In this document: piece after piece, positions 8,805 through 47,234 of the stretch
Layout of the letters: each line of letters begins with the position of its first letter
Position numbering within the stretch: the stretch's first letter is position 1
NCBI GenBank assembly: GCA_002419055.1
Contig: DIFI01000017.1
Coordinates: 41,160 to 105,159, forward strand
DNA: 64,000 nt
Source: Peptococcaceae bacterium UBA5752
GTDB taxonomy: Bacteria; Bacillota; Dehalobacteriia; UBA4068
Reading direction: 5' to 3'
Program-made: the position numbers and the translations under genes
The notes under the pieces: generated by a model
What the model was told of the DNA's origin: nothing
Seen by the model: the letters and a program-made list of their open reading frames with translations, nothing else
Database searches by the model: none

Positions 8805-9188
8805 TTAAGCACCTCCCTTGATAGCATATGAAATTCTTGATAATTCATCGGATATTAGTCTGGACATACATTGGTATTGCAGCTGAACTCGCGTCAGCTC
8901 AATATTTTGTTCGTCAATATCAACATTATTGCCATCTTCCCGCATCTGACTGGAATTGTCGCAGGTTACTTTTGGTTCTATTTCCTCCAGCTGTTTTTGA
9001 AATTCGACATCGGAGTTTGCACCATTTAAAGCAGAATACAAAATGTCTTCAAACTCAACACTCTTGCATTTATACTCGGGTGTATCAACGTTAGCGATAT
9101 TGTTAGAGATTACTTGCTGCCTCAACCACAAAGCATCAAGACTCTTTTGGGCAATCTGCAGGCTATTGGAATTTATTAGATTTTGCAT
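8805..9188 (-). CDS. flgB: flagellar basal-body rod protein FlgB
   Basis: Start set to internal ATG (MQNLINSNSLQIAQKSLDALWLRQQVISNNIANVDTPEY) which has AAAGGAG RBS 8 nt upstream; longer ORF-track start lacks an RBS. Confidence 0.85.
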   Translation of the reverse strand: MQNLINSNSLQIAQKSLDALWLRQQVISNNIANVDTPEYKCKSVEFEDILYSALNGANSDVEFQKQLEEIEPKVTCDNSSQMREDGNNVDIDEQNIELTRVQLQYQCMSRLISDELSRISYAIKGGA

Positions 9189-9275
9189 CAAAAATGCTCC
9201 TTTCAAAAATCTTATAAAAAAAGAGTGTTGTACTGAATAAAGCAAACGCAAATCTAAAAGTTCACGTTGTTTGCA

Positions 9276-9445
9276 ATGCATTCAGCCCACACTCTACAAA
9301 ATATTAAATCATCAGAAAATCAATGAATGTAATTAGTTATTTTGGGAGCTGGCTGCCATTTCAGAGGCCCTGTAGCTTTGCGTCGCCATCTTTCGATGGG
9401 TTTGCTATTATCTATAACTTTATGACTTTTTCTGACACTTTATAA
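9276..9445. repeat. intergenic repeat family, copy 1 (~170 bp)
   Basis: gcattcagcccacactctac...aatcaatgaatgta...ttattttgggagctggctgccatttcagaggccctgtagctttgcgtcgccatctttcgatgggtttgctattatctataactt...tctgacactt; recurs at 9446-9577 and 9706-9890. Confidence 0.8.
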
Positions 9446-9577
9446 TGAATGTAACTATAATGTGTAGTTATTTAGGGAGCTGGCTGCCATTTCGTAGGCC
9501 CTGTAGCTTTGCGTCACCATCTTTCGATGGGTTTGCTATTATCTATAACTTTTTAACTTTTTCTGACACTTTAAACT
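9446..9577. repeat. intergenic repeat family, copy 2 (near-identical to core of copy 1)
   Basis: atgaatgtaa...ttatttagggagctggctgccatttcgtaggccctgtagctttgcgtcaccatctttcgatgggtttgctattatctataactt...tctgacactt; ~95% identical to copy 1 over ~100 bp. Confidence 0.8.
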
Positions 9578-9705
9578 GTTAATGTTTCTGCAATAATTTG
9601 TCTCCTTTTATATTTTAAATAGTTTAATAAATAAAAAAACAGAGTATTTCACTTAAATAATCATGCATAACACGTATATACATAGATATACAATGACCTG
9701 CTATG

Positions 9706-9890
9706 CATTCAGCTCAATACTCTACTTAAAATATTTGATGTCGTCTGAAAATCAATGAAATTACTATAATATCGAGTAGTTATTTAGAAAGCTGGATGCC
9801 ATTTTACCATTTTACCATTTTACAGACCCAGTGGCTTTGAGCCGCCATCTTTCGATGACCTTGCCTTATCTAAAACTTACTTTTGATTTT
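9706..9890. repeat. intergenic repeat family, copy 3 (diverged, full-length)
   Basis: atgcattcagctcaatactctac...gaaaatcaatgaa...tagttatttagaaagctggatgccatttt(accatttt x2)acagacccagtggctttgagccgccatctttcgatgaccttgcc; shares start, middle and CCATCTTTCGATG core with copies 1-2. Confidence 0.7.
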
Positions 9891-9993
9891 ATTCTTATGA
9901 TTCTTACTACGACGAATTTTTAGAATGTTTCTATATTTTGCATCAACTGTATAAATTTGTCAATACTATTTTTGTATTTTTTATCATTATTTA

Positions 9994-10020
9994 TAACTTT
10001 ATGTATAATTTTGTCGATAT
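9994..10020 (+). promoter_or_regulatory. putative sigma-28 (FliA/SigD)-type promoter, distal, upstream of fliD
   Basis: TAAC-N15-GTCGATAT versus consensus TAAA-N15-GCCGATAT; late flagellar gene context. Confidence 0.35.
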
Positions 10021-10110
10021 ATTTATTGAATATTACCATTTTTTATTCTTTAACCAATATTAATTATGATTATTAATTAATATTTGCCGTAATAAATAAT
10101 TGTTTTTAGC

Positions 10111-10138
10111 TAATTTTTTTATACATATTTGTCGATAT
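10111..10138 (+). promoter_or_regulatory. putative sigma-28-type promoter, proximal, upstream of fliD
   Basis: TAAT-N16-GTCGATAT, same -10 element as distal copy, ~40 nt upstream of fliD RBS (AAGGGGGG). Confidence 0.35.
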
Positions 10139-10178
10139 ATCTAAAGAGAATATTTTCGATAACAAGGGGGGATTTATA

Positions 10179-12107
10179 ATGTCGATCAGTACCATAACAA
10201 GCAGCAGTAACAGGATCAGCGGATTGGCATCAGGCCTGGATACTGATGAATTGGTAAAAAATCTCACCGAGGCAACGCGTTCTAAAGTCGAAAAAACGGA
10301 ACAGCAAAAGCAGATCCTTGAATGGAAGCAAGAAGATTACCGATCGCAACTTGAAGAATTAATTGAATTCAATAATACATATTTTGGCACATCTTCTTCC
10401 GGCATCACTTTAGGAAACACCTTGAATCGGATGACGGCAACAAGCTCCAATACCGCTTATGTGCAAGCAATAGCCGGAAACAATGCCACAGGAGGGTCGG
10501 TTTATATAAGCGATATCGTAAGCCTTGCAACCGCGGCTTCGGTCAAAAGCTCATCTCAGATAAGTCCGGATTTATCTTTTACGGTCAGCACCGATAACCT
10601 CAGTTCCCTTTCCGGTGCTGCAATGAATGTAACACTAGATGGTACGACAAAAACAATAACCTTCACCGAGGGTACCTACAGCACTGTAGACGATGTTGCG
10701 ACAGAATTGACGAATCTTTTGAATGATGCTTTTGGCGATGGCCGAATCACGGTAACTAATACCGATGGCGATCTTTCCCTCTTTGTCGAAAACAGTGTTC
10801 TCGGAATAGCCAATACTAATGAGGATGGCGCGGTACAAGCCCTTGATATAATGGGGTTTTCTGCAGAAACAGATGTTTCTTCCAACCGTTTAAATTTAAG
10901 CAATACCATTTCTGATTATGCTGCTGTTTTTGGCAGTGACGAAAGCTTCTCTTTTACCATAAATGATAAAGAATTTACTTTTACAAGCGGCACGACACTA
11001 AGCAAGGTTATTTCAACTATCAATGCCAGTAACGCCAATGTTAATATTTCCTATTCCAATATCAAAGATACTTTTACCATAAAATCAAAAGAAACCGGTA
11101 CAGGTTCAAGCGTAGAGTTGGCAGACACTTCCGGTTCCTTTTTGAGTTCCATATTGGGTGGTACCGGCTCTGCAACCGCCGGCAATAATGCAATTGTTAA
11201 GCTAAGTCTGGATGGAAGCACCGCTGCCGAAGACCAGATCACCATTACCAGAAACTCCAATACCTTTGCCATCAACGGTACTACCTATACCCTCAAGGGT
11301 ATCGCGGGCGGCACGGCGGAGGAAGGGATTACGGTAAACACAGACGTTGATACGGAAAATATTTATGATACTATCACCAAATTTGTCAGCGACTATAATA
11401 AATTACTTAGTTCGATAACCAATAAGCTGTATGAAGAGCGTGACAGCGATTTTCAACCGCTGACCGAAAGCGAAAAAGAAGACTTATCCGAAGATGAAAT
11501 TACAGACTGGACCGAACAAGCAAGGCAGGGCTGGTTAAGAAACGATACCTACCTGACCGAGATATATAATTCTCTTCGAAGTTCACTTTACACCCATGTT
11601 AAGAGCCTGGACGGTTCGGGAGATAATATCGGGCTGATTCTGGCCGATATCGGCATCACCACATCCGATTACACAGAAAACGGCAAGCTGACCATTGACG
11701 AGGATAAACTACGTTCGGCCTTAGCCGAAGACGCGGGAAGTGTGATAAACCTTCTGACGCAGAAATCTTCCGTAAACTATTCTTTGTACAACACAACCGA
11801 AAACAAGCAAACCCGCTATAACGAATCCGGCCTCTTATGGAGAATCAACGATATTGTAAAAAACAACATCAGTACCGTCGGTAAAAAAGGCTCTCTTGTT
11901 ACCCTTGTCGGCAATCCCAGCACCGGATATGTAGGCACTTCTACATACAGCGAGCGGATTAATGCTATGGAAGATAAGATCGACACACTGAAAGAAAAAC
12001 TTGCGGATCAAGAAGATTTTTACTATAAGAGGTTTACCGCAATGGAAACGGCTCTCAGCACATTAAACTCTCAAAGCAATTATCTAGCTTCACTATTGTC
12101 CAGCTAA
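10179..12107 (+). CDS. fliD: flagellar filament capping protein FliD
   Basis: 642 aa; N-terminal ISGLASGLDTDELVKNL motif and C-terminal coiled coil region typical of FliD; followed by fliS. Confidence 0.85.
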   Translation: MSISTITSSSNRISGLASGLDTDELVKNLTEATRSKVEKTEQQKQILEWKQEDYRSQLEELIEFNNTYFGTSSSGITLGNTLNRMTATSSNTAYVQAIAGNNATGGSVYISDIVSLATAASVKSSSQISPDLSFTVSTDNLSSLSGAAMNVTLDGTTKTITFTEGTYSTVDDVATELTNLLNDAFGDGRITVTNTDGDLSLFVENSVLGIANTNEDGAVQALDIMGFSAETDVSSNRLNLSNTISDYAAVFGSDESFSFTINDKEFTFTSGTTLSKVISTINASNANVNISYSNIKDTFTIKSKETGTGSSVELADTSGSFLSSILGGTGSATAGNNAIVKLSLDGSTAAEDQITITRNSNTFAINGTTYTLKGIAGGTAEEGITVNTDVDTENIYDTITKFVSDYNKLLSSITNKLYEERDSDFQPLTESEKEDLSEDEITDWTEQARQGWLRNDTYLTEIYNSLRSSLYTHVKSLDGSGDNIGLILADIGITTSDYTENGKLTIDEDKLRSALAEDAGSVINLLTQKSSVNYSLYNTTENKQTRYNESGLLWRINDIVKNNISTVGKKGSLVTLVGNPSTGYVGTSTYSERINAMEDKIDTLKEKLADQEDFYYKRFTAMETALSTLNSQSNYLASLLSS

Positions 12108-16210: not shown

Positions 16211-19200
16211 ATGCAAATTGCATCAGAAAAAAAGATGCTGGCCCTTTTGGTACAGCGTCTAAATGATTCGACGAATCCCTATGTTTATTCATTGAAAAGA
16301 AAAGAAGTTAATGCTTTTTTGGAACAGCATGGCTGGGCAAAAAAGATTAATGATTTGCTACGCATGCCTACTTCTGTTACCTGGAAGCGGGTTTTAGAAT
16401 TAAGCCGGGATACGCTGGATTATCTGTGTGAAATGCCGGATGAAGGCTGGTTAAATTTTACCTTGCATTTTGCCATTGATCTGATGTTCCCCAAAGAAGA
16501 GTTTGCTTTACGCCGCAGTAAATTCAGCGACGGAGCAGTTTTTCTGCTTACTTTGATGCAGCTTGTTTATGACGAAGAAAAGAAAGCCGGATTGATACCT
16601 AAATCGGTTGAGTTTTCTTTACTAAATAAATCTGAAGTAGAGGGCGAGTCAACCGCTGTTGAATACAACCGTTTGCTTAAAGCACTTAGACAGGAATATG
16701 TATACGAAATGATGCGGCTGTCTCAGGAACTGTCGCCCTACCGTTCTTTAGAACATATCGCCAATGTTCATCGGATGGCTCTTTATATGGCGCGGCAATT
16801 GAAGCGCTCCGGCGTACCTGTGGACTTATGCCTTATTTCCGGTGCTGCCCTGACTCATGATATAGGTAAATTTGGCTGCCAGAAAGGTGAACGCGTACCT
16901 TATCTGCATTATTTTTATACTGACAGATGGTGCCGGCAGCAAAATATACCCACAATCGGTCATATCGCGGCCAACCATTCTGTTTGGGATCTGGAGCTAG
17001 AAAATTTGTCGGCGGAATCACTGCTGCTCATTTACGCTGATTTTCGTATTAAACAAGTGACAGATAACGGCGTGGAAAATACCCGCGTATTCACACTCAA
17101 GGAAAGCTTCCAAGTCATACTAGAAAAACTTGATAACGTGGATTCCTCCAAGCGGGACCGTTATCTGAAAGTTTATGATAAGCTCAGCGATTTCGAGGAT
17201 TATCTGCGCTTTTTAGGCGTAGATACAAACATGGATGGCAAAGAATTGCATCCTTGCTGCCGCGAAGCCTCTCTGATGACCGGCGAAGAAGCGGTGGCTT
17301 CTTTGAAACTGCTGGGCGTTGAGCATAATATTGCTCTGATGCACCACTTCGGCAACGAACGATTGTTCGGTAACATCCTGGAAGCTGCCCGAACCGAGAA
17401 AAACTGGAAAAATATCCGCGCCTATCTAGGTGTTTTCGATGAATATTTCACTTATCTGAGCATCAGCCAAAAGGTGCAGACGCTGGCTTTTCTTTACGAG
17501 CTGTTGATGAACCGCGAAGGCGATATACGCCGTCAGGCCGCATCGCTACTGGGCAATATCATTGCGCGCTTCGATATCAGCTATAAAAAAGAACTGCCCG
17601 CCGGTGTGGCGGAGGATGATGATATAACCTCGCTGCAAATGTGGGAAAAATATCTTGAGATGATTATTCATCCGAGTTATAAGCTTACCTTCCAACACAA
17701 AAGCTGGATTGGCTTTACATTAAAGATAGTTATCTCATCATTTTTCGAAAACTGTGACGAGGCTGACCGCCGTCCTTTTATGGAGCGGCTAACCAAGTGG
17801 TTTAGCAGCCCGGATAAGGAAGAGTTGGTCAACTTCTATTTACTTGATGCAATCAATTATCTGCCTCTGAAATTTTGCACGGACAAGGAAAGGTCGCGTC
17901 TACTGACATTTGCCATGGATGCAGCCGAAGGCTCCATATCACTGTTGCGCGCCTCTGCTTTGCGTACTTTGAGCTATATCGTTGCCATCGGCTACCCCTT
18001 AGAACAAGATGAGGTTCGTCGTCTGTCCGCGCTTTGCGTACCCTGCAACGATCAAGAAGAAAATACTACGCTGCGAATGTTAAAAACGCAAATTCGCAGT
18101 TGTTTATCGGAAAGTGACGAAACTGAATTGACTGCCGTCAGCAGTGATACAATCTCCGATATCTTTCTTGATAATCTGAAGATGGCCACCTCGTGGGTGA
18201 TCAAAACCCTTAACGTGGATCTTTTGCTCAGCGTAGCCGAGCAAGACCCGCACAGTCCTTATCTGCTGCATATCGCCGCTCATTTTGCTAATCTGCTCAA
18301 AGTCAGTGAGCGGGTAGTGGTGCGGCACAAAGCCGGCGCCGCGCTGTTGCACATCGCGCCTCTACTTTCCTATGACCAGCGCAATGAGATAGCAGTGGAG
18401 CTGCTACAGGGACTGGAAGTCGGAGAATATGAATTTTCTAAATATATACCCGAATATTTGGGACAGTTTGCTCTCTGGCTAAGTACCGAAGAACTGGAAG
18501 AATTGATTCTCCAACTCAATGATCTGGTTTACAGTCCTAATACAAATGTGGTAGCCGTCGCCATAGCAACAATTGGCGTTCTGATGGAATGCCTCAATAA
18601 TCGCCGTGACAACTTTGGTGAGACTCACCAAATGCAGGAACGCCGCAGAGAATATTTACTTGGTATACTGCTTAAAGGTTTGGTAGGACGTGACGCTGCA
18701 AGACAGGAGTCGATGCTGATCATCGGACAGCACTTCTTTGCCTCTCGCAAACTGGCCGATGACGATAAACGTCAGCTATTCGGCAAATGCTGTAAAAAGC
18801 TGCTCAGCTTAATTAGCGAATATCGGGAAGGCAAACTGGAATTTTTCTACCGTGCCGCTGTTTTAAACAATATTTACCGCTTCATCAGCGATTCCCAGCT
18901 TAATCATGGGGAATTTGTCATTGAACAATTTGATAAAGTTGCGTTTTTCCCCGGCACCTTCGATCCTTTCTCCAATTCTCACAAAGGTATCGTGGAGGAG
19001 ATGCTTCAGCAGGGCTTCGAAGTAATGCTGGCTATCGATGAATATTCCTGGTCCAAAAAAACGCAGCCGCATTTTATCCGGCATCAATTAGCCAATATGA
19101 CTTTGGCCGATAAATTTCATGTCTATGTTTATCCCGGATCTATGCCGGTTAATATTGCAAATCCGCAGGATCTGGCTATGCTGCGACATTCTCTGCCGGA

Positions 19201-21049
19201 GCGTCATATCTATATAGTAGCCGGCAGCGACGTAGTAGCTAATGCTACCGCCTATAAAGAGCCGCCACAACCCGATTCTATCCACAGCTTCGACCATATC
19301 ATATTTCCGCGTACGGAGGGCGAAGATATTGCGGCAGTGATTGACATGGCCGCACTATCCCGCATCAAAGGCGAAGTGATAAGCCTATCACTGCCGGTAT
19401 ACTTGGAAAATGTCAGTTCTACCAACATCCGTGAGGATATTGACAATAACAGAGATATTTCCAATCTGGTTGACCCCATGGTACAGGAGTTCATCTACAA
19501 CAACAATCTCTATCTGCGTGAGCCTCAATACAAACAGTTACCGAACGTCCGGCAAGCCGAAGTGGAACGCTGGACTTCGGCAAATCCCGCCGATGTACAA
19601 CGTCTGTTAAATAAACTGTTGCCGGAGCGGGGTGAGGCAAATCGTGCGACAGCCGTTGCTTTAAGTAAAAGAGGAAGCGAATTTTTTCTGCTCAAAGATG
19701 ACAGCCAAGAGGCTAGTCCGGTAGGAATGATATCGCTGCACGAAGTGCAGATTTCGGAATTGATGCCTTTGTTGGGCAATACCCATTTGGCGGATAAAGT
19801 CCGCCAACGACAGGCCGGACGAGTATTGTTGATCACCGGCATATATATGAGCAAAGACAGTTGGGACAACTCTCAGCTTCTCTGCACCGAAGTATTTGGA
19901 TCAGCGCTGCGTAACGGCTGTACCCATGCTATGTTCTATCCAATCGACACCGCAGGAAACTGCAATTATGTCTTAGAGTTGCTGAAACGCCAAGGTTTTG
20001 TGGTTTTAGAGGACAATGACCCGCGGCAGCCGTTATATATTACCGATTTGCGTGCGCCTTTGGTGTTGCTCCGCAATATCGAGACATCTATGAAGGCGCC
20101 TTTTGCCAATTTACCGTCTGTATTGAAGGCGGCACAAGGGGCTCACTGGCGGTTGCAGACTGCCATGGCAGGACTCAAGCCGGGTCATCTGGTATTATCC
20201 GTAGATTCCAATATCATGCAGGAAAAGCTGATCCGCCGCATTACAGAACTTAACGGCGTACCGGCAAAACCCGTAGAGCCTCCGCAGTTTGGCCCCTTGA
20301 TGTGCGTTCCTTTCAGCAAGTTACTGCGGCGCAGTATAGTGCCGAATACAGTGACCAAGACAGTGCATACAGACAAAGTGTTTGAGCCAGATATCAGCAA
20401 ATTTTCTATTGAAGCATATCCCAATTATTTGCCGCTGGAATACCAAATTCGCACTATCAAATCATTTATGCGCCCGGTGATTATGGTGACTGATATGCTG
20501 CAAAGCGGCCACAGGTTAAGAACATTATCTCCGATTTTTAATCAACAGGGTATTGAGATCCACGCCGTATTAGCGGGAATATTATCCGGACGGGGCCGTG
20601 ATGTTGTCTCCACGCAAGGTTATCGTGTCGAATGCATCTATTTTGTTCCCAACCTTCATGGCTGGTGCATCGAGTCCACTCTCTATCCTTTCATCGGCGG
20701 AGATACGGTGCGCAGAAATGAAAGTCCTAAGGCCAATCTGCTACCCGCGGTCAACCTGATACTGCCCTATGCTTCTATTCGCATTTTCAACCAATTTCCG
20801 AGAAAAGCGGTATACGATTATTCGCTTGCATGTATGGAAAATGCCCGCGATATCATGCAGGTGTTGGAACAGGAATACGCCGCCCGCTTCGGACGCAATC
20901 TGACATTGAACCGCCTCTCTGAAGTTATCCACCTGCCGTTGCTGCCTGATAAGGGTAAATATATGCAATATGATTACAATCTTACGGCATCTGTTTATAT
21001 AAAAAATGATATCGAGCTGCTGTTGCGGCTGAGTAATCAGTTTCGATGA
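16211..21049 (+). CDS. giant multidomain protein: HD phosphohydrolase motif + long helical (HEAT/ARM-like) region + HxGH/ISSTxIR nucleotidyltransferase domain (NMN/NaMN adenylyltransferase-like) + type-I phosphoribosyltransferase-like domain
   Basis: HD motif ...NVHRMALYMARQL...ALTHDIGKFG...HIAANH...LIYADFR (nt ~16750-17080); NTase FFPGTFDPFSNSHKGIV ... ENVSSTNIRE (nt ~18940-19440); PRTase-like VIMVTDMLQSGHRLRTL (nt ~20477-20527); strong RBS; single uninterrupted ORF. Confidence 0.85.
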   Translation: MQIASEKKMLALLVQRLNDSTNPYVYSLKRKEVNAFLEQHGWAKKINDLLRMPTSVTWKRVLELSRDTLDYLCEMPDEGWLNFTLHFAIDLMFPKEEFALRRSKFSDGAVFLLTLMQLVYDEEKKAGLIPKSVEFSLLNKSEVEGESTAVEYNRLLKALRQEYVYEMMRLSQELSPYRSLEHIANVHRMALYMARQLKRSGVPVDLCLISGAALTHDIGKFGCQKGERVPYLHYFYTDRWCRQQNIPTIGHIAANHSVWDLELENLSAESLLLIYADFRIKQVTDNGVENTRVFTLKESFQVILEKLDNVDSSKRDRYLKVYDKLSDFEDYLRFLGVDTNMDGKELHPCCREASLMTGEEAVASLKLLGVEHNIALMHHFGNERLFGNILEAARTEKNWKNIRAYLGVFDEYFTYLSISQKVQTLAFLYELLMNREGDIRRQAASLLGNIIARFDISYKKELPAGVAEDDDITSLQMWEKYLEMIIHPSYKLTFQHKSWIGFTLKIVISSFFENCDEADRRPFMERLTKWFSSPDKEELVNFYLLDAINYLPLKFCTDKERSRLLTFAMDAAEGSISLLRASALRTLSYIVAIGYPLEQDEVRRLSALCVPCNDQEENTTLRMLKTQIRSCLSESDETELTAVSSDTISDIFLDNLKMATSWVIKTLNVDLLLSVAEQDPHSPYLLHIAAHFANLLKVSERVVVRHKAGAALLHIAPLLSYDQRNEIAVELLQGLEVGEYEFSKYIPEYLGQFALWLSTEELEELILQLNDLVYSPNTNVVAVAIATIGVLMECLNNRRDNFGETHQMQERRREYLLGILLKGLVGRDAARQESMLIIGQHFFASRKLADDDKRQLFGKCCKKLLSLISEYREGKLEFFYRAAVLNNIYRFISDSQLNHGEFVIEQFDKVAFFPGTFDPFSNSHKGIVEEMLQQGFEVMLAIDEYSWSKKTQPHFIRHQLANMTLADKFHVYVYPGSMPVNIANPQDLAMLRHSLPERHIYIVAGSDVVANATAYKEPPQPDSIHSFDHIIFPRTEGEDIAAVIDMAALSRIKGEVISLSLPVYLENVSSTNIREDIDNNRDISNLVDPMVQEFIYNNNLYLREPQYKQLPNVRQAEVERWTSANPADVQRLLNKLLPERGEANRATAVALSKRGSEFFLLKDDSQEASPVGMISLHEVQISELMPLLGNTHLADKVRQRQAGRVLLITGIYMSKDSWDNSQLLCTEVFGSALRNGCTHAMFYPIDTAGNCNYVLELLKRQGFVVLEDNDPRQPLYITDLRAPLVLLRNIETSMKAPFANLPSVLKAAQGAHWRLQTAMAGLKPGHLVLSVDSNIMQEKLIRRITELNGVPAKPVEPPQFGPLMCVPFSKLLRRSIVPNTVTKTVHTDKVFEPDISKFSIEAYPNYLPLEYQIRTIKSFMRPVIMVTDMLQSGHRLRTLSPIFNQQGIEIHAVLAGILSGRGRDVVSTQGYRVECIYFVPNLHGWCIESTLYPFIGGDTVRRNESPKANLLPAVNLILPYASIRIFNQFPRKAVYDYSLACMENARDIMQVLEQEYAARFGRNLTLNRLSEVIHLPLLPDKGKYMQYDYNLTASVYIKNDIELLLRLSNQFR

Positions 21050-21066: not shown

Positions 21067-22320
21067 ATGTACTATGCCAAATTAGATGAAAACTATATAT
21101 GTTCTTTAAAAGGCGATTTACCGGGGCAGAAAGTGCATCAATTGCCATCGGATGTATCTCGGACGGTTTTTTTGTTTGAGCGCGATCCGTTAACTTGCCG
21201 TGATGCTTTCGCCGTTACCCACCCTTGCCAATTGTCCGCGCAAACAGAGGATGTGACTTGGCTGGCATCTGAGAGTTTACCGTCGGCGGAAAAACTGCCG
21301 CTACAAGTGACAGAGCTAATCCGTAATGACCAACTGCGTGCAGTCAACAAATCGCATCCCCGCTGGAGAGAATTGCTAAATTGTACTGCTGCGGAGGGGA
21401 AAAAACGGGTCAATATTATCGCAGTAGGCGATGTCGGCGGTACTGTGCTTATTGGTCTGCGTCTATTGGGTGGCGATATACTTTCTTCTATCGGCATCTA
21501 TGACCTGTCGCCCACGACTTTAGACCGCTGGGAATTCGAAGTGGGACAAGTTTACTCTCCCTGGACCGAATATCAGCCTCCGCATGTAGCCATAATAGAT
21601 GAGGAAAACATCTTCGATTGCGATATGCTGGTCTTTTGCGCCACCGGCGGCGTGCCTCCGCTTGCGGAAAAAGGCGATGTACGTTTAGCACAGCTTGCCG
21701 TCAACAGCCGTTTAGTATCACATTATGCCAAACTGGCACGCCAGCGAAGTTTTGGCGGCATCTTTGCGGTTGTCAGCGATCCGGTTGATCTGCTTTGCCG
21801 CATAGCATGGTTGGAAAGTAACCGTAATCATGACGGCCGCTGGGACGGCAAGGGTTTATTCACGGCACAGGTGGAGGGCTACGGTTTAGGAGTTATGTAT
21901 GCGCGGGCAGCTTATTATGCCCGCCGCGACAGCCGCTTTGCTGCTTTTTTGAACGATGGCGCAGCTTATGGGCCTCACGGCTCCGAACTGGTTATTGCCA
22001 ATTCCCTGTCTGATTATGACGATGACCTATCAAGGGAATTGACGCGCCTGGCTGCCGAGGCTAATCTGGAAGCCAGGTCACGGGATTTCAAGCCCTTCAT
22101 TGCGCCTGCTCTTTCCTCCGCTGCTTATCAGATACTCGACACTTTGCGGGGACGCCCTCATCTCGGCGCAACTATGCTGGGTGATATCTTTTTCGGCGCT
22201 GTCAACCGGCGAGGGCCCTCCGGCATAGAGGTTTTTTCTCATCCCCTACCGCAAGAGCTGCTATCCCGTATCCAATATTCTGCTGCTGTTTTGCAAAATT
22301 TGGGAGAACACTATGAATAA
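21067..22320 (+). CDS. lactate/malate dehydrogenase-family (Ldh_1-like) NAD(P)-binding protein with ~100-aa N-terminal extension
   Basis: KRVNIIAVGDVGGTVLIGL (Rossmann GxGxxG), DMLVFCATG, SDPVDLL (cf. LDH TNPVDIL), GYGLGVMYARAAYYAR, GPHGSELV (cf. GEHGDS with catalytic His); TAGGAG RBS, 18-nt gap after upstream gene. Confidence 0.7.
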   Translation: MYYAKLDENYICSLKGDLPGQKVHQLPSDVSRTVFLFERDPLTCRDAFAVTHPCQLSAQTEDVTWLASESLPSAEKLPLQVTELIRNDQLRAVNKSHPRWRELLNCTAAEGKKRVNIIAVGDVGGTVLIGLRLLGGDILSSIGIYDLSPTTLDRWEFEVGQVYSPWTEYQPPHVAIIDEENIFDCDMLVFCATGGVPPLAEKGDVRLAQLAVNSRLVSHYAKLARQRSFGGIFAVVSDPVDLLCRIAWLESNRNHDGRWDGKGLFTAQVEGYGLGVMYARAAYYARRDSRFAAFLNDGAAYGPHGSELVIANSLSDYDDDLSRELTRLAAEANLEARSRDFKPFIAPALSSAAYQILDTLRGRPHLGATMLGDIFFGAVNRRGPSGIEVFSHPLPQELLSRIQYSAAVLQNLGEHYE

Positions 22321-46244: not shown

Positions 46245-46610
46245 TCATATTATTATAAATAAACCTCCGATATAGAAACCTGCCATAAACCCGATGATTC
46301 CAAAAATAAGAGAACTCGAAATATATATAAATGCATTTAACTTTTCTTTTCCTTGAAAGAGATTAAAACCTTCATACATAAATGTTGAAAAAGTGGTATA
46401 TGCGCCTAAAAAACCGTCACCCAACAGCAGATATATGTTATTGCCTGCATTAACACTAGTTATAATACCCAAAAGTAACGCTCCGGTAATATTGATAGTA
46501 AAGGTACCAATCGGAAATGCAGTGTTTTGTCTTTGAGAAATTATCTTTCCGAATTGAAACCTGCATACAGCACCAAAAGCTCCACCTAGGCCAACCAAGA
46601 CAATATCCAT
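46245..46610 (-). CDS. crcB: fluoride-specific ion channel subunit FluC/CrcB (second copy)
   Basis: 121 aa, 4 TM, GGAFGAVCRF and GAYTTFSTF motifs. Confidence 0.85.
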   Translation of the reverse strand: MDIVLVGLGGAFGAVCRFQFGKIISQRQNTAFPIGTFTINITGALLLGIITSVNAGNNIYLLLGDGFLGAYTTFSTFMYEGFNLFQGKEKLNAFIYISSSLIFGIIGFMAGFYIGGLFIII

Positions 46611-47038
46611 TATTCCACTTCGCTTTCAATTTCAATTTTTTCTTTTCTCCTAAAAAGTCTTAAACCTGCCGAACGCGCAAGTATGGTTCCCAAATATGCT
46701 ACTCCAAGTCCCAGCATGATTGAAATTGTTATATATGAAATAGCAGAAAAATAATCTCCGATTCGCATAAGCTCGAAAGTTTCCTTGCACAATGTGGCAA
46801 ATGTTGTAAAAGCTCCCAAAAAACCAATTGTTACGCCATGTCGAATATCCGGGTTAACTTCTCTGAACTCAAATGCCAATGTAATAAAAAATGCCATAAT
46901 AAAACACCCTGCTATATTAATAATCAATGTATTTAAGGGAAAAAGCTCATGATATCCCAGTATTTGAATTAATTCAAACAAATAACGTGCAATTGCACCT
47001 ATAAATCCGCCAATGCTTATAAAAATGTATTTTTTCAT
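46610..47038 (-). CDS. crcB: fluoride-specific ion channel subunit FluC/CrcB (first copy)
   Basis: GGFIGAIARY and GAFTTFATL motifs; 1-nt overlap with the next crcB suggests a heterodimeric Fluc pair. Confidence 0.85.
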   Translation of the reverse strand: MKKYIFISIGGFIGAIARYLFELIQILGYHELFPLNTLIINIAGCFIMAFFITLAFEFREVNPDIRHGVTIGFLGAFTTFATLCKETFELMRIGDYFSAISYITISIMLGLGVAYLGTILARSAGLRLFRRKEKIEIESEVE

Positions 47039-47080: not shown

Positions 47081-47160
47081 AAAAAACTCCTACAGATAAC
47101 TTAAGTAAGTTATTTGTAGGAGTCATTAGCTTTTCAGCATTTAAGGTGAACTCCATCACC
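47081..47160 (-). ncRNA. fluoride riboswitch (crcB RNA motif) with intrinsic terminator
   Basis: Minus-strand RNA GGUGAUGGAGUUCACC...AAAUGCUGAAAAGCUAAUGACUCCUAC matches the crcB-motif consensus (GGCGAUGGnGUUCGCC...CUAAUGACUCCUAC); followed by expression-platform hairpin cuccuacaaauaacuu/aaguuaucuguaggag + U-run. Confidence 0.85.
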
Positions 47161-47234
47161 AATTATAATTTATATCACATTATATAGTATATTACAACGT
47201 TTTTTTATTGGTTTTAGGGATTATGTGGAATGCC

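Follow-up and report, generated by a model that had tools for sequence, protein, structure and literature searches.

Two groups of flagellar genes diverge from a shared gap in the 64-kb stretch of Peptococcaceae bacterium UBA5752 DNA analysed here (hereafter the window). On the minus strand lie flgB, flgC, fliE, fliF, fliG, fliH, fliI and onward to fliK, and on the plus strand fliD, fliS, motA and motB. The gap measures 990 bp, from the flgB ATG at 9188 (minus) to the fliD ATG at 10179 (plus), as stated in a preliminary description of this DNA, which also pointed out three copies of a repeat there. When the gap was searched with the Rfam covariance models at gathering thresholds, three matches to RF01051 (the cyclic di-GMP-I family, c-di-GMP-I or GEMM-I; gathering score 35 bits) were obtained, all on the minus strand. 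The repeats are three cis-acting c-di-GMP-I riboswitch aptamers, which are called A (distal), B (middle) and C (proximal) in the following (Table 1).

Table 1. Features of the flgB/fliD gap, in window coordinates. Ligand positions are given as equivalents in Vc2 numbering.
Feature	Position	Strand	Details
Sigma-A-type promoter of the flgB operon	9963-9935	minus	consensus scan; -35 TTGACA 9963-9958, -10 CAAAAT 9940-9935, TG before the -10
Aptamer A (distal, diverged c-di-GMP-I)	9875-9784	minus	RF01051, 35.2 bits, just above threshold
Ligand positions of aptamer A			G20 eq. G9865; A47 eq. A9838; C92 eq. U9788
Micro-duplication	9798-9823	minus	AAAAUGGU x3 on the RNA strand, 8-nt unit; tip of the P3 hairpin of aptamer A
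Candidate antiterminator A	9713-9795	minus	aptamer A 3' strands and CUCGAUAUU (9776-9768) with 9721-9713 and the adjoining terminator 5' arm (GAGCUGAAUGCA)
Terminator A	9724-9640 (hairpin), 9639-9633 (U7)	minus	RNA folding; base UAGAGUAUU / AAUACUCUG, -29.2 kcal/mol
Tandem unit	9444-9578		122-135 nt pair; this unit 135 nt
Aptamer B (middle, c-di-GMP-I)	9547-9472	minus	RF01051, 61.8 bits
Ligand positions of aptamer B			G20 eq. A9537; A47 eq. A9510; C92 eq. C9476
Tandem unit	9322-9443		122 nt
Aptamer C (proximal, c-di-GMP-I)	9416-9341	minus	RF01051, 60.8 bits
Ligand positions of aptamer C			G20 eq. A9406; A47 eq. A9379; C92 eq. C9345
Candidate antiterminator C	9284-9354	minus	AGCC/GCUC/CAAAAUA (9354-9338) with UAUUUUG/GAGU/GGCU (9303-9284)
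Terminator C	9295-9222 (hairpin), 9221-9216 (U-tract)	minus	RNA folding; base AGAGUGU / ACACUCU, -25.3 kcal/mol
flgB ribosome-binding site and start codon	9203-9197, 9188-9186	minus	AAAGGAG; ATG

The promoter lies upstream of the aptamers on the same strand, and all three aptamers are therefore placed in the flgB leader, whose transcription would start near 9928 and which would be about 740 nt long. The promoter block TTGACA-N15-TGCAAAAT occurs at the same relative position in the related loci L001, L008, L010 and L012, and the alignment of FlgB with its closest relatives (78-83% identity) starts at the ATG at 9188. The leader is arranged as the promoter, A with terminator A, B and C with terminator C, the ribosome-binding site and flgB. 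Units A and C are homologous across both aptamer and platform; in unit B, the copied part is limited to the aptamer and the sequence directly beside it.

The GEMM-I fold was backed by covariation across 14 orthologous aptamers from the flgB leaders of 11 loci. In this alignment, 95.8% of the cells were paired, compared to at most 45% in slid controls, and double-sided changes were found at 6 pairs (2/500 shuffles). A GAAA tetraloop caps the P2 hairpin of A, B and C, next to a three-helix junction with the P3 hairpin. Of the 76 aptamer positions, 4 distinguish B from C, all outside the consensus-critical sites, and B retains every consensus feature. In A, the first P2 pair is a C-U mismatch. 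The micro-duplication noted earlier in this copy was confirmed with Tandem Repeats Finder as 3.1 copies of CCATTTTA at 9799-9823 (100% matches), and its site at the tip of P3 is a variable position within the c-di-GMP-I family. Under a clade-specific covariance model (R1), aptamer A, which was outside the training set, scored 48.7 bits (E 1e-12); the working aptamers, which made up that set, scored 87-115 bits.

The extent of the repeats was also re-examined. The tandem pair, described before as about 95% identical, is real: Tandem Repeats Finder gave a period of 131, 1.8 copies and 94% matches at 9334-9573, a direct-repeat search gave 114 nt at 93%, and the aptamer spans of B and C are 94.7% identical. 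The two units differ by indels of 9 and 4 nt. The first copy had been placed too far to the left, since 9276-9321 lies outside the pair; this segment is the expression platform, and its homologue flanks the third copy (9272-9289 matches 9699-9716 at 89%, and 9295-9327 matches 9727-9759 at 76%). The third, diverged copy was recovered with 80% identity across a 50-nt core at 9815-9864; over the whole aptamer its identity to the others is 64.5% because of the insertion. The conserved core proved to be non-random, as a 31-nt core occurred twice at no more than 3 mismatches and never in 100 shuffles. No further copies of the repeat or its core were found elsewhere in the 64-kb window, and the related loci carry aptamers at the equivalent place in the flgB leader. 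The views that the repeats are not CRISPR-like and that they are regulatory modules tied to the fla/flgB operon held good, as did the suggestion to examine their RNA folding. Two plus-strand open reading frames (ORFs), 9323-9445 (40 aa) and 9445-9582 (45 aa), were rejected as genes: they result from reading the two aptamers in antisense, and their repetition only follows that of the aptamers.

Both A and C are followed by a terminator hairpin with a U-tract. None of 200 shuffles was as stable as the terminator C fold (z -2.88), and the stem base and U-tract of terminator A are conserved in L001, L008 and L010. After B, the 55 nt up to C hold a linker hairpin alone (9467-9432, 36 nt), without a U-tract, and B therefore lacks its own expression platform. 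The terminators are self-contained, with no aptamer nucleotides inside. Complementarity exists between the aptamer 3' strands and the terminator 5' arm, which argues for an OFF-switch design; we infer that the ligand would lock these strands in the aptamer and free the terminator arm.

The two candidate antiterminators differ in their statistics. In that of C, the strands at 9354-9338 consist of the P3 3' strand, the C92 junction and the P1 3' strand, and the partner at 9303-9284 overlaps the base of the terminator 5' arm. This pairing is the minimum-free-energy (MFE) structure of transcripts ending at 9285 and 9270, and its duplex energy is -17.1 kcal/mol (z -1.9, 500 shuffles). The homologous proximal duplexes reached -19.8 kcal/mol in L010 (z -3.2), -22.4 kcal/mol in L001 (z -4.4) and -22.7 kcal/mol in L008 (z -5.2), each against 500 shuffles. 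The partners vary by species, CAAAAUA:UAUUUUG in the window compared to CCCUAA:UUAGGG in L010, which indicates that the pairing has been kept through sequence change. One of the differences between B and C, a U to A change in C, perfects the CAAAAUA:UAUUUUG pairing. The antiterminator A duplex reached -19.6 kcal/mol (z -3.2; 4/500 shuffles as good) and was seen in co-transcriptional snapshots. Whole-leader and whole-unit thermodynamic folding did not discriminate between the states, and only truncated transcripts were informative on the switch logic.

The comparative loci were mostly obtained from FlgB homologues and their contigs; scans of contigs and metagenomes yielded few close relatives. 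The window is identical to contig Draft_10010298 of JGI metagenome 3300000568, and the nearest named genome is Peptococcaceae bacterium UBA4068 (L001), with an FlgB 78% identical. All 11 related loci (FlgB 56-83% identical) have divergent fliD and flgB and at least one aptamer of the GEMM-I clan in the flgB leader. In the three closest, L010 (83%), L001 and L008 (both 78%), a degenerate distal unit with a terminator is followed by a single proximal aptamer with a terminator, and the more distant loci have a single aptamer in this leader. A different arrangement was found in L012 (FlgB 64%), where two adjacent aptamers (1663-1738 and 1772-1847, 88% identical, 33 nt apart) precede one terminator in the leader at 1525-1975, with a faint third remnant upstream (1525-1607, 19.3 bits). 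In the first of these aptamers, the P1 3' strand is followed by AUUUUUAU.

The history of the leader was deduced from these loci. Under the clade model, the distal units scored 48.7 bits in the window, 30.3 bits in L010 and 22.9 bits in L001. The distal unit of L008 was undetectable because its P2 hairpin is deleted; at 2040-2110 of that locus the whole P2 tetraloop hairpin is missing from the pseudo-aptamer, with the downstream terminator-like hairpin and U-tract intact. Imperfect forms of the micro-duplication occur in the distal units of L001 and L010, so the insertion predates the split of these lineages, and the distal unit that carries it is old. The 5' flanks of B and C are identical at 17 of 17 positions, and this flank is lacking in L010; for this reason, the B/C duplication is dated after the split from L010 and is specific to the lineage of the window. 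Duplication and decay of aptamers recur in the flgB leader.

Being nearly identical to C, B has a P1 3' strand complementary to the P1 5' strand of C, and by duplex energy its 3' strands could pair with the 5' arm of terminator C no less strongly than the C strands (-17.5 kcal/mol for B, -17.1 kcal/mol for C). A role of B as a second antiterminator donor was considered and kept as no more than a conjecture, given that with C held bound the terminator arm pairs in MFE folds with AU-rich linker sequence. P1 strands are exchanged between the adjacent aptamers in the folds predicted for L012, where the coupling to the terminator is strong for the proximal (z -3.5) and weak for the upstream aptamer (z -1.6). 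B may be a neutral recent duplicate; alternatively, termination may occur only once both aptamers hold ligand, in which case B would make the response sharper.

Taken together, the best explanation is that the three GEMM-I aptamers of the flgB leader act as two serial transcription-termination checkpoints through which the ligand turns the flgB operon OFF, a reading to which we give a probability of about 0.8. The leader would be transcribed leftward from the conserved sigma-A-type promoter. The first checkpoint would be the older, diverged unit of aptamer A and its own terminator, and the second the newer unit, in which the near-identical B and C stand ahead of one terminator. At low levels of the cyclic dinucleotide, an antiterminator would arise from the pairing of the 3' strands of C (and of A) with the terminator 5' arm, and transcription would read through into flgB. 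With ligand bound, the strands would be locked in the aptamer, the terminator would form, and transcription would stop at about 9633 or 9216. A high level of the second messenger would thereby shut off the flagellar basal-body genes, and serial checkpoints would give tighter repression and a steeper dose-response. c-di-GMP generally represses motility.

Several observations weigh against this explanation. Aptamer A scores right at the Rfam threshold, has a U at the C92 position and a broken conserved pair, and its predicted fold contains a competing GGCU/AGCC hairpin; the equivalent units of the relatives are in decay, with 30.3 and 22.9 bits in two of them and none detectable in L008. B is without its own platform, and no link from it to terminator C appeared when the MFE folds were constrained. 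An A occupies the G20 position in both B and C, and the ligand could therefore be 3',3'-cyclic GMP-AMP (3',3'-cGAMP) or both dinucleotides. Antiterminator C is just modestly better than shuffles, 23 of 500 being as good. The full-length MFE folds form the terminators with or without an aptamer constraint, and any switching must therefore be kinetic. Furthermore, the terminator hairpins are unusually long (74-85 nt), and a simple terminator scan of the region found none on the minus strand. The scan missed both because their loops and stems exceed its limits, and its three hits on the plus strand come from the P2 tetraloop hairpin of the opposite strand.

The ligand-contact positions were mapped with the description of Gs1761 (J1/2 A9-A14, P2 C15-G40, J2/3 A41, P3 A42-U73, J1/3 G74-C75; PMC6274999) and the equivalence of its A14 with Vc2 G20 (PMC6140456). 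The A20 of B and C together with the U92 of A makes the affinity or specificity for c-di-GMP or 3',3'-cGAMP uncertain. Half of the 14 orthologous aptamers on the same operon have an A at position 20 and half a G (7 each), and we read this toggling as probable tuning of the affinity for c-di-GMP rather than a change of ligand. In L014, the sole leader aptamer (1540-1615) is high-scoring and has a U at the C92 equivalent (J1/3 = AU) and a G at position 20. An assignment to c-di-GMP-I-GGC (RF03167) was rejected: the aptamers of the window and its relatives read GACGCAAA or a close variant, with an A at the J2/3 (A47) site and not the G of the model (consensus GACGCGA). Several relatives score best on RF03167 (51-66 bits) despite this A, and they were not filed there because the A stands at the position that defines the family. 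The leader aptamers of L011, L012, L014 and L016 lie above the RF03167 gathering threshold, and clan competition would mislabel them.

The alternative we take most seriously, possible but on balance doubtful, is that only C works, as a single c-di-GMP OFF switch of the kind its relatives have, with B a neutral tandem duplicate and A a decaying pseudo-aptamer whose terminator is bypassed or leaky. It would explain why B is without a terminator and is not coupled to terminator C in MFE folding, and why the antiterminator-perfecting change is in C alone, with the ancestral U of L010 and L001 retained in B. The three loci closest to the window, L010, L001 and L008, also get by with a single proximal aptamer, and the distal units decay across the relatives, as the U92 and broken pair of A would suggest for the window. 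However, B has retained all consensus features after about 5% divergence and two indels, and L012 independently keeps two adjacent aptamers before one terminator, which suggests that such an arrangement can be kept by selection. Likewise, no other distal copy is as well preserved as the A of the window, the complementarity behind its antiterminator is significant (z -3.2), and the base and U-tract of the distal terminator are conserved in L001, L008 and L010. Less probable is that the ligand is not c-di-GMP alone but 3',3'-cGAMP, or both dinucleotides. The pocket of B and C is A20/C92, as in GEMM-Ib, and the G20/U92 of A could pair one G and one A. The Vc2 G20A mutant binds both dinucleotides (c-di-GMP 53 nM, cGAMP 120 nM), and the natural A20 aptamers of Geobacter are cGAMP-selective (PMC6140456). 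On the other hand, Cbe 1-2, an A20 aptamer of clostridial origin, has a higher affinity for c-di-GMP (30 nM) than for cGAMP (463 nM; PMC6140456), and the 7/7 polymorphism at position 20 fits affinity tuning better than a dedicated ligand change. In addition, the U92 of A depends on the Rfam alignment of a degenerate copy, and the distal unit of L001 has kept C92. We give still less credence to a composite sensor, as opposed to three redundant c-di-GMP switches, in which the B/C unit with its one terminator needs both aptamers liganded (the free P1 3' strand of an unliganded B invading C or the platform), all pockets take one G and one A, and flagellar synthesis in this uncultivated Clostridia lineage responds to 3',3'-cGAMP, with or without c-di-GMP as a joint ligand. 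If it were true, the recurrent duplication and decay in L012, L010, L001 and L008 would represent an ongoing retuning of sensitivity and specificity.

An ON design, in which the ligand prevents termination as in the Bc3-5 triple tandem of B. thuringiensis, appears very unlikely. The thermodynamic folds always show the terminator, as expected for a ligand-free ON switch. Nevertheless, the terminator hairpins share no nucleotides with the aptamers, the 3' strands complement the terminator 5' arm, and ON control would run counter to the general repression of motility by c-di-GMP. Both directions exist in this class (PMC6200980; PMC4759541), and the orthologous flgB riboswitch of C. difficile is OFF (PMC6200980). 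The options offered in the preliminary description, namely that the repeats are duplicated promoter/operator modules, independent small RNAs of one family or what is left of a miniature mobile element, are the least credible of all. The prematurely terminated leaders would indeed be short RNAs, as for the C. difficile riboswitches (PMC6200980), and the B/C junction does create a strong plus-strand sigma-70-like match (CTGACA-18-TATAAT, 9432-9461, 11/12), antisense to aptamer B. However, the promoter-like matches in the region number 6, compared to 8.1 ± 2.9 in shuffles, the plus-strand sites inside the repeats show no excess either, and the conserved promoter of the operon sits upstream of the repeats. 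Trans-acting small RNAs and mobile elements are likewise disfavoured: the conserved core is an Rfam riboswitch with covariation, the repeats have no terminal inverted repeats and no other copies in the window, and the 11 related loci carry the element in the same place.

Some further features of the gap were noted. Two GTCGATAT boxes (10013-10020 and 10131-10138, plus strand) lie within a direct repeat (9998-10025 / 10116-10143) and point to fliD. They resemble the sigma-D (sigma-28) -10 consensus GCCGATAT, and the equivalents in L001 read GCCGATAT and GTCGATAT. On account of these boxes and their equivalent places in L001, fliD probably has two late-flagellar promoters within the gap that it shares with the flgB leader. 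Past terminator A, the minus strand at 9579-9609 holds an RBS-like (ribosome-binding-site-like) AAAAGGAGA followed by UUGCAGAAACAUUAA, which resembles the flgB site and first codons (AAAGGAGC...AUGCAAAAUCUAAUA); this stretch is absent from L001 and L010, and it may be a relic of an old duplication that made unit A and included the flgB start. A 15-nt near-identity (14/15) between the -10 region at 9932-9946 (TTGATGCAAAATATA) and the flgB start at 9177-9191 (TTGATGCAAAATCTA) does not occur in the relatives and is probably due to chance. Elsewhere in the window, a fluoride riboswitch (RF01734, 58.3 bits, 47110-47169, minus) lies directly upstream of the minus-strand ORFs 46610-47038 and 46245-46610, two small membrane-protein genes that look like a crcB pair in the ordinary arrangement. 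The plus-strand ORFs 16211-21049 (1612 aa) and 21067-22320 (417 aa), which adjoin cheC/cheD and motA/motB, had no Pfam match at E ≤ 1e-5.

These results explain a conspicuous repeat as ordinary biology, the control of the main flagellar operon by c-di-GMP riboswitches in a relative of UBA4068 that is uncultivated, and do not overturn current understanding. What they add is a natural series of leaders, with one aptamer, with one and a decaying unit, with two before one terminator, and with three and two terminators, together with natural variation at both specificity positions (G/A at 20 and C/U at 92). Such a series can be used to study the origin of tandem riboswitches by duplication, the relation of copy number to dose-response, and the value of aptamers without a platform.

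The closest known system is Cdi-1-3 (Cd1) in the flgB 5' untranslated region of Clostridioides difficile, where c-di-GMP binding terminates transcription (PMC6200980). It shares with the window the riboswitch class, the control of flgB and the early flagellar genes and a long leader, and OFF termination is likewise what we propose here. C. difficile has a single aptamer and an invertible flagellar switch downstream of it, whereas the window has three aptamers, two terminators and no convincing inverted repeats. A switch of the C. difficile type was looked for and rejected, as just AT-rich inverted repeats with 70-81% complementarity were found, none of them conserved in L010, L001 or L012.

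Among tandem riboswitches, those of c-di-GMP-I are the largest class (347 doublets and 12 triplets; PMC9481103), and they give more digital responses (PMC9481103; PMC4759541). One of these triplets, Bc3-5, has been characterised experimentally, and like the window it has three GEMM-I aptamers in one leader, a serial layout from which tighter and more digital control is expected (PMC4759541). Bc3, Bc4 and Bc5 are each complete with their own terminator, work as ON switches and control surface-protein genes, and in the ON design of Bc4 the binding-site, P1 and P3 nucleotides belong to the terminator (PMC4759541). In the window, by contrast, two of the three aptamers (A and C) have a platform and terminator and B has none, one copy is strongly diverged, the target is motility and the direction would be OFF. 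With their adjacent homologous sensors on one platform, B and C resemble a glycine-type riboswitch in layout, and L012 has the same layout independently. The glycine aptamers belong to a different class and have evolved inter-domain tertiary contacts, whereas B and C are recent duplicates 55 nt apart, and any cooperativity between them is conjectural. c-di-GMP-I is listed only among multiple-platform arrangements (PMC9481103), and contiguous aptamers without an intervening terminator are common in surveys (PMC12452182). With GEMM-Ib (Gs1761 of Geobacter, Cbe 1-2 of Clostridium beijerinckii; PMC6140456), B and C share the adenine at the G20 equivalent; the context here is motility and not exoelectrogenesis, and the orthologues alternate between G and A at this position. 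Thus, c-di-GMP-I riboswitches before flgB and tandem and triple c-di-GMP-I arrangements are all already documented, and what is particular to the window is the combination of a diverged complete unit with a two-aptamer, one-terminator unit, the proposed OFF control of a flagellar operon by such an array, and the varying specificity positions.

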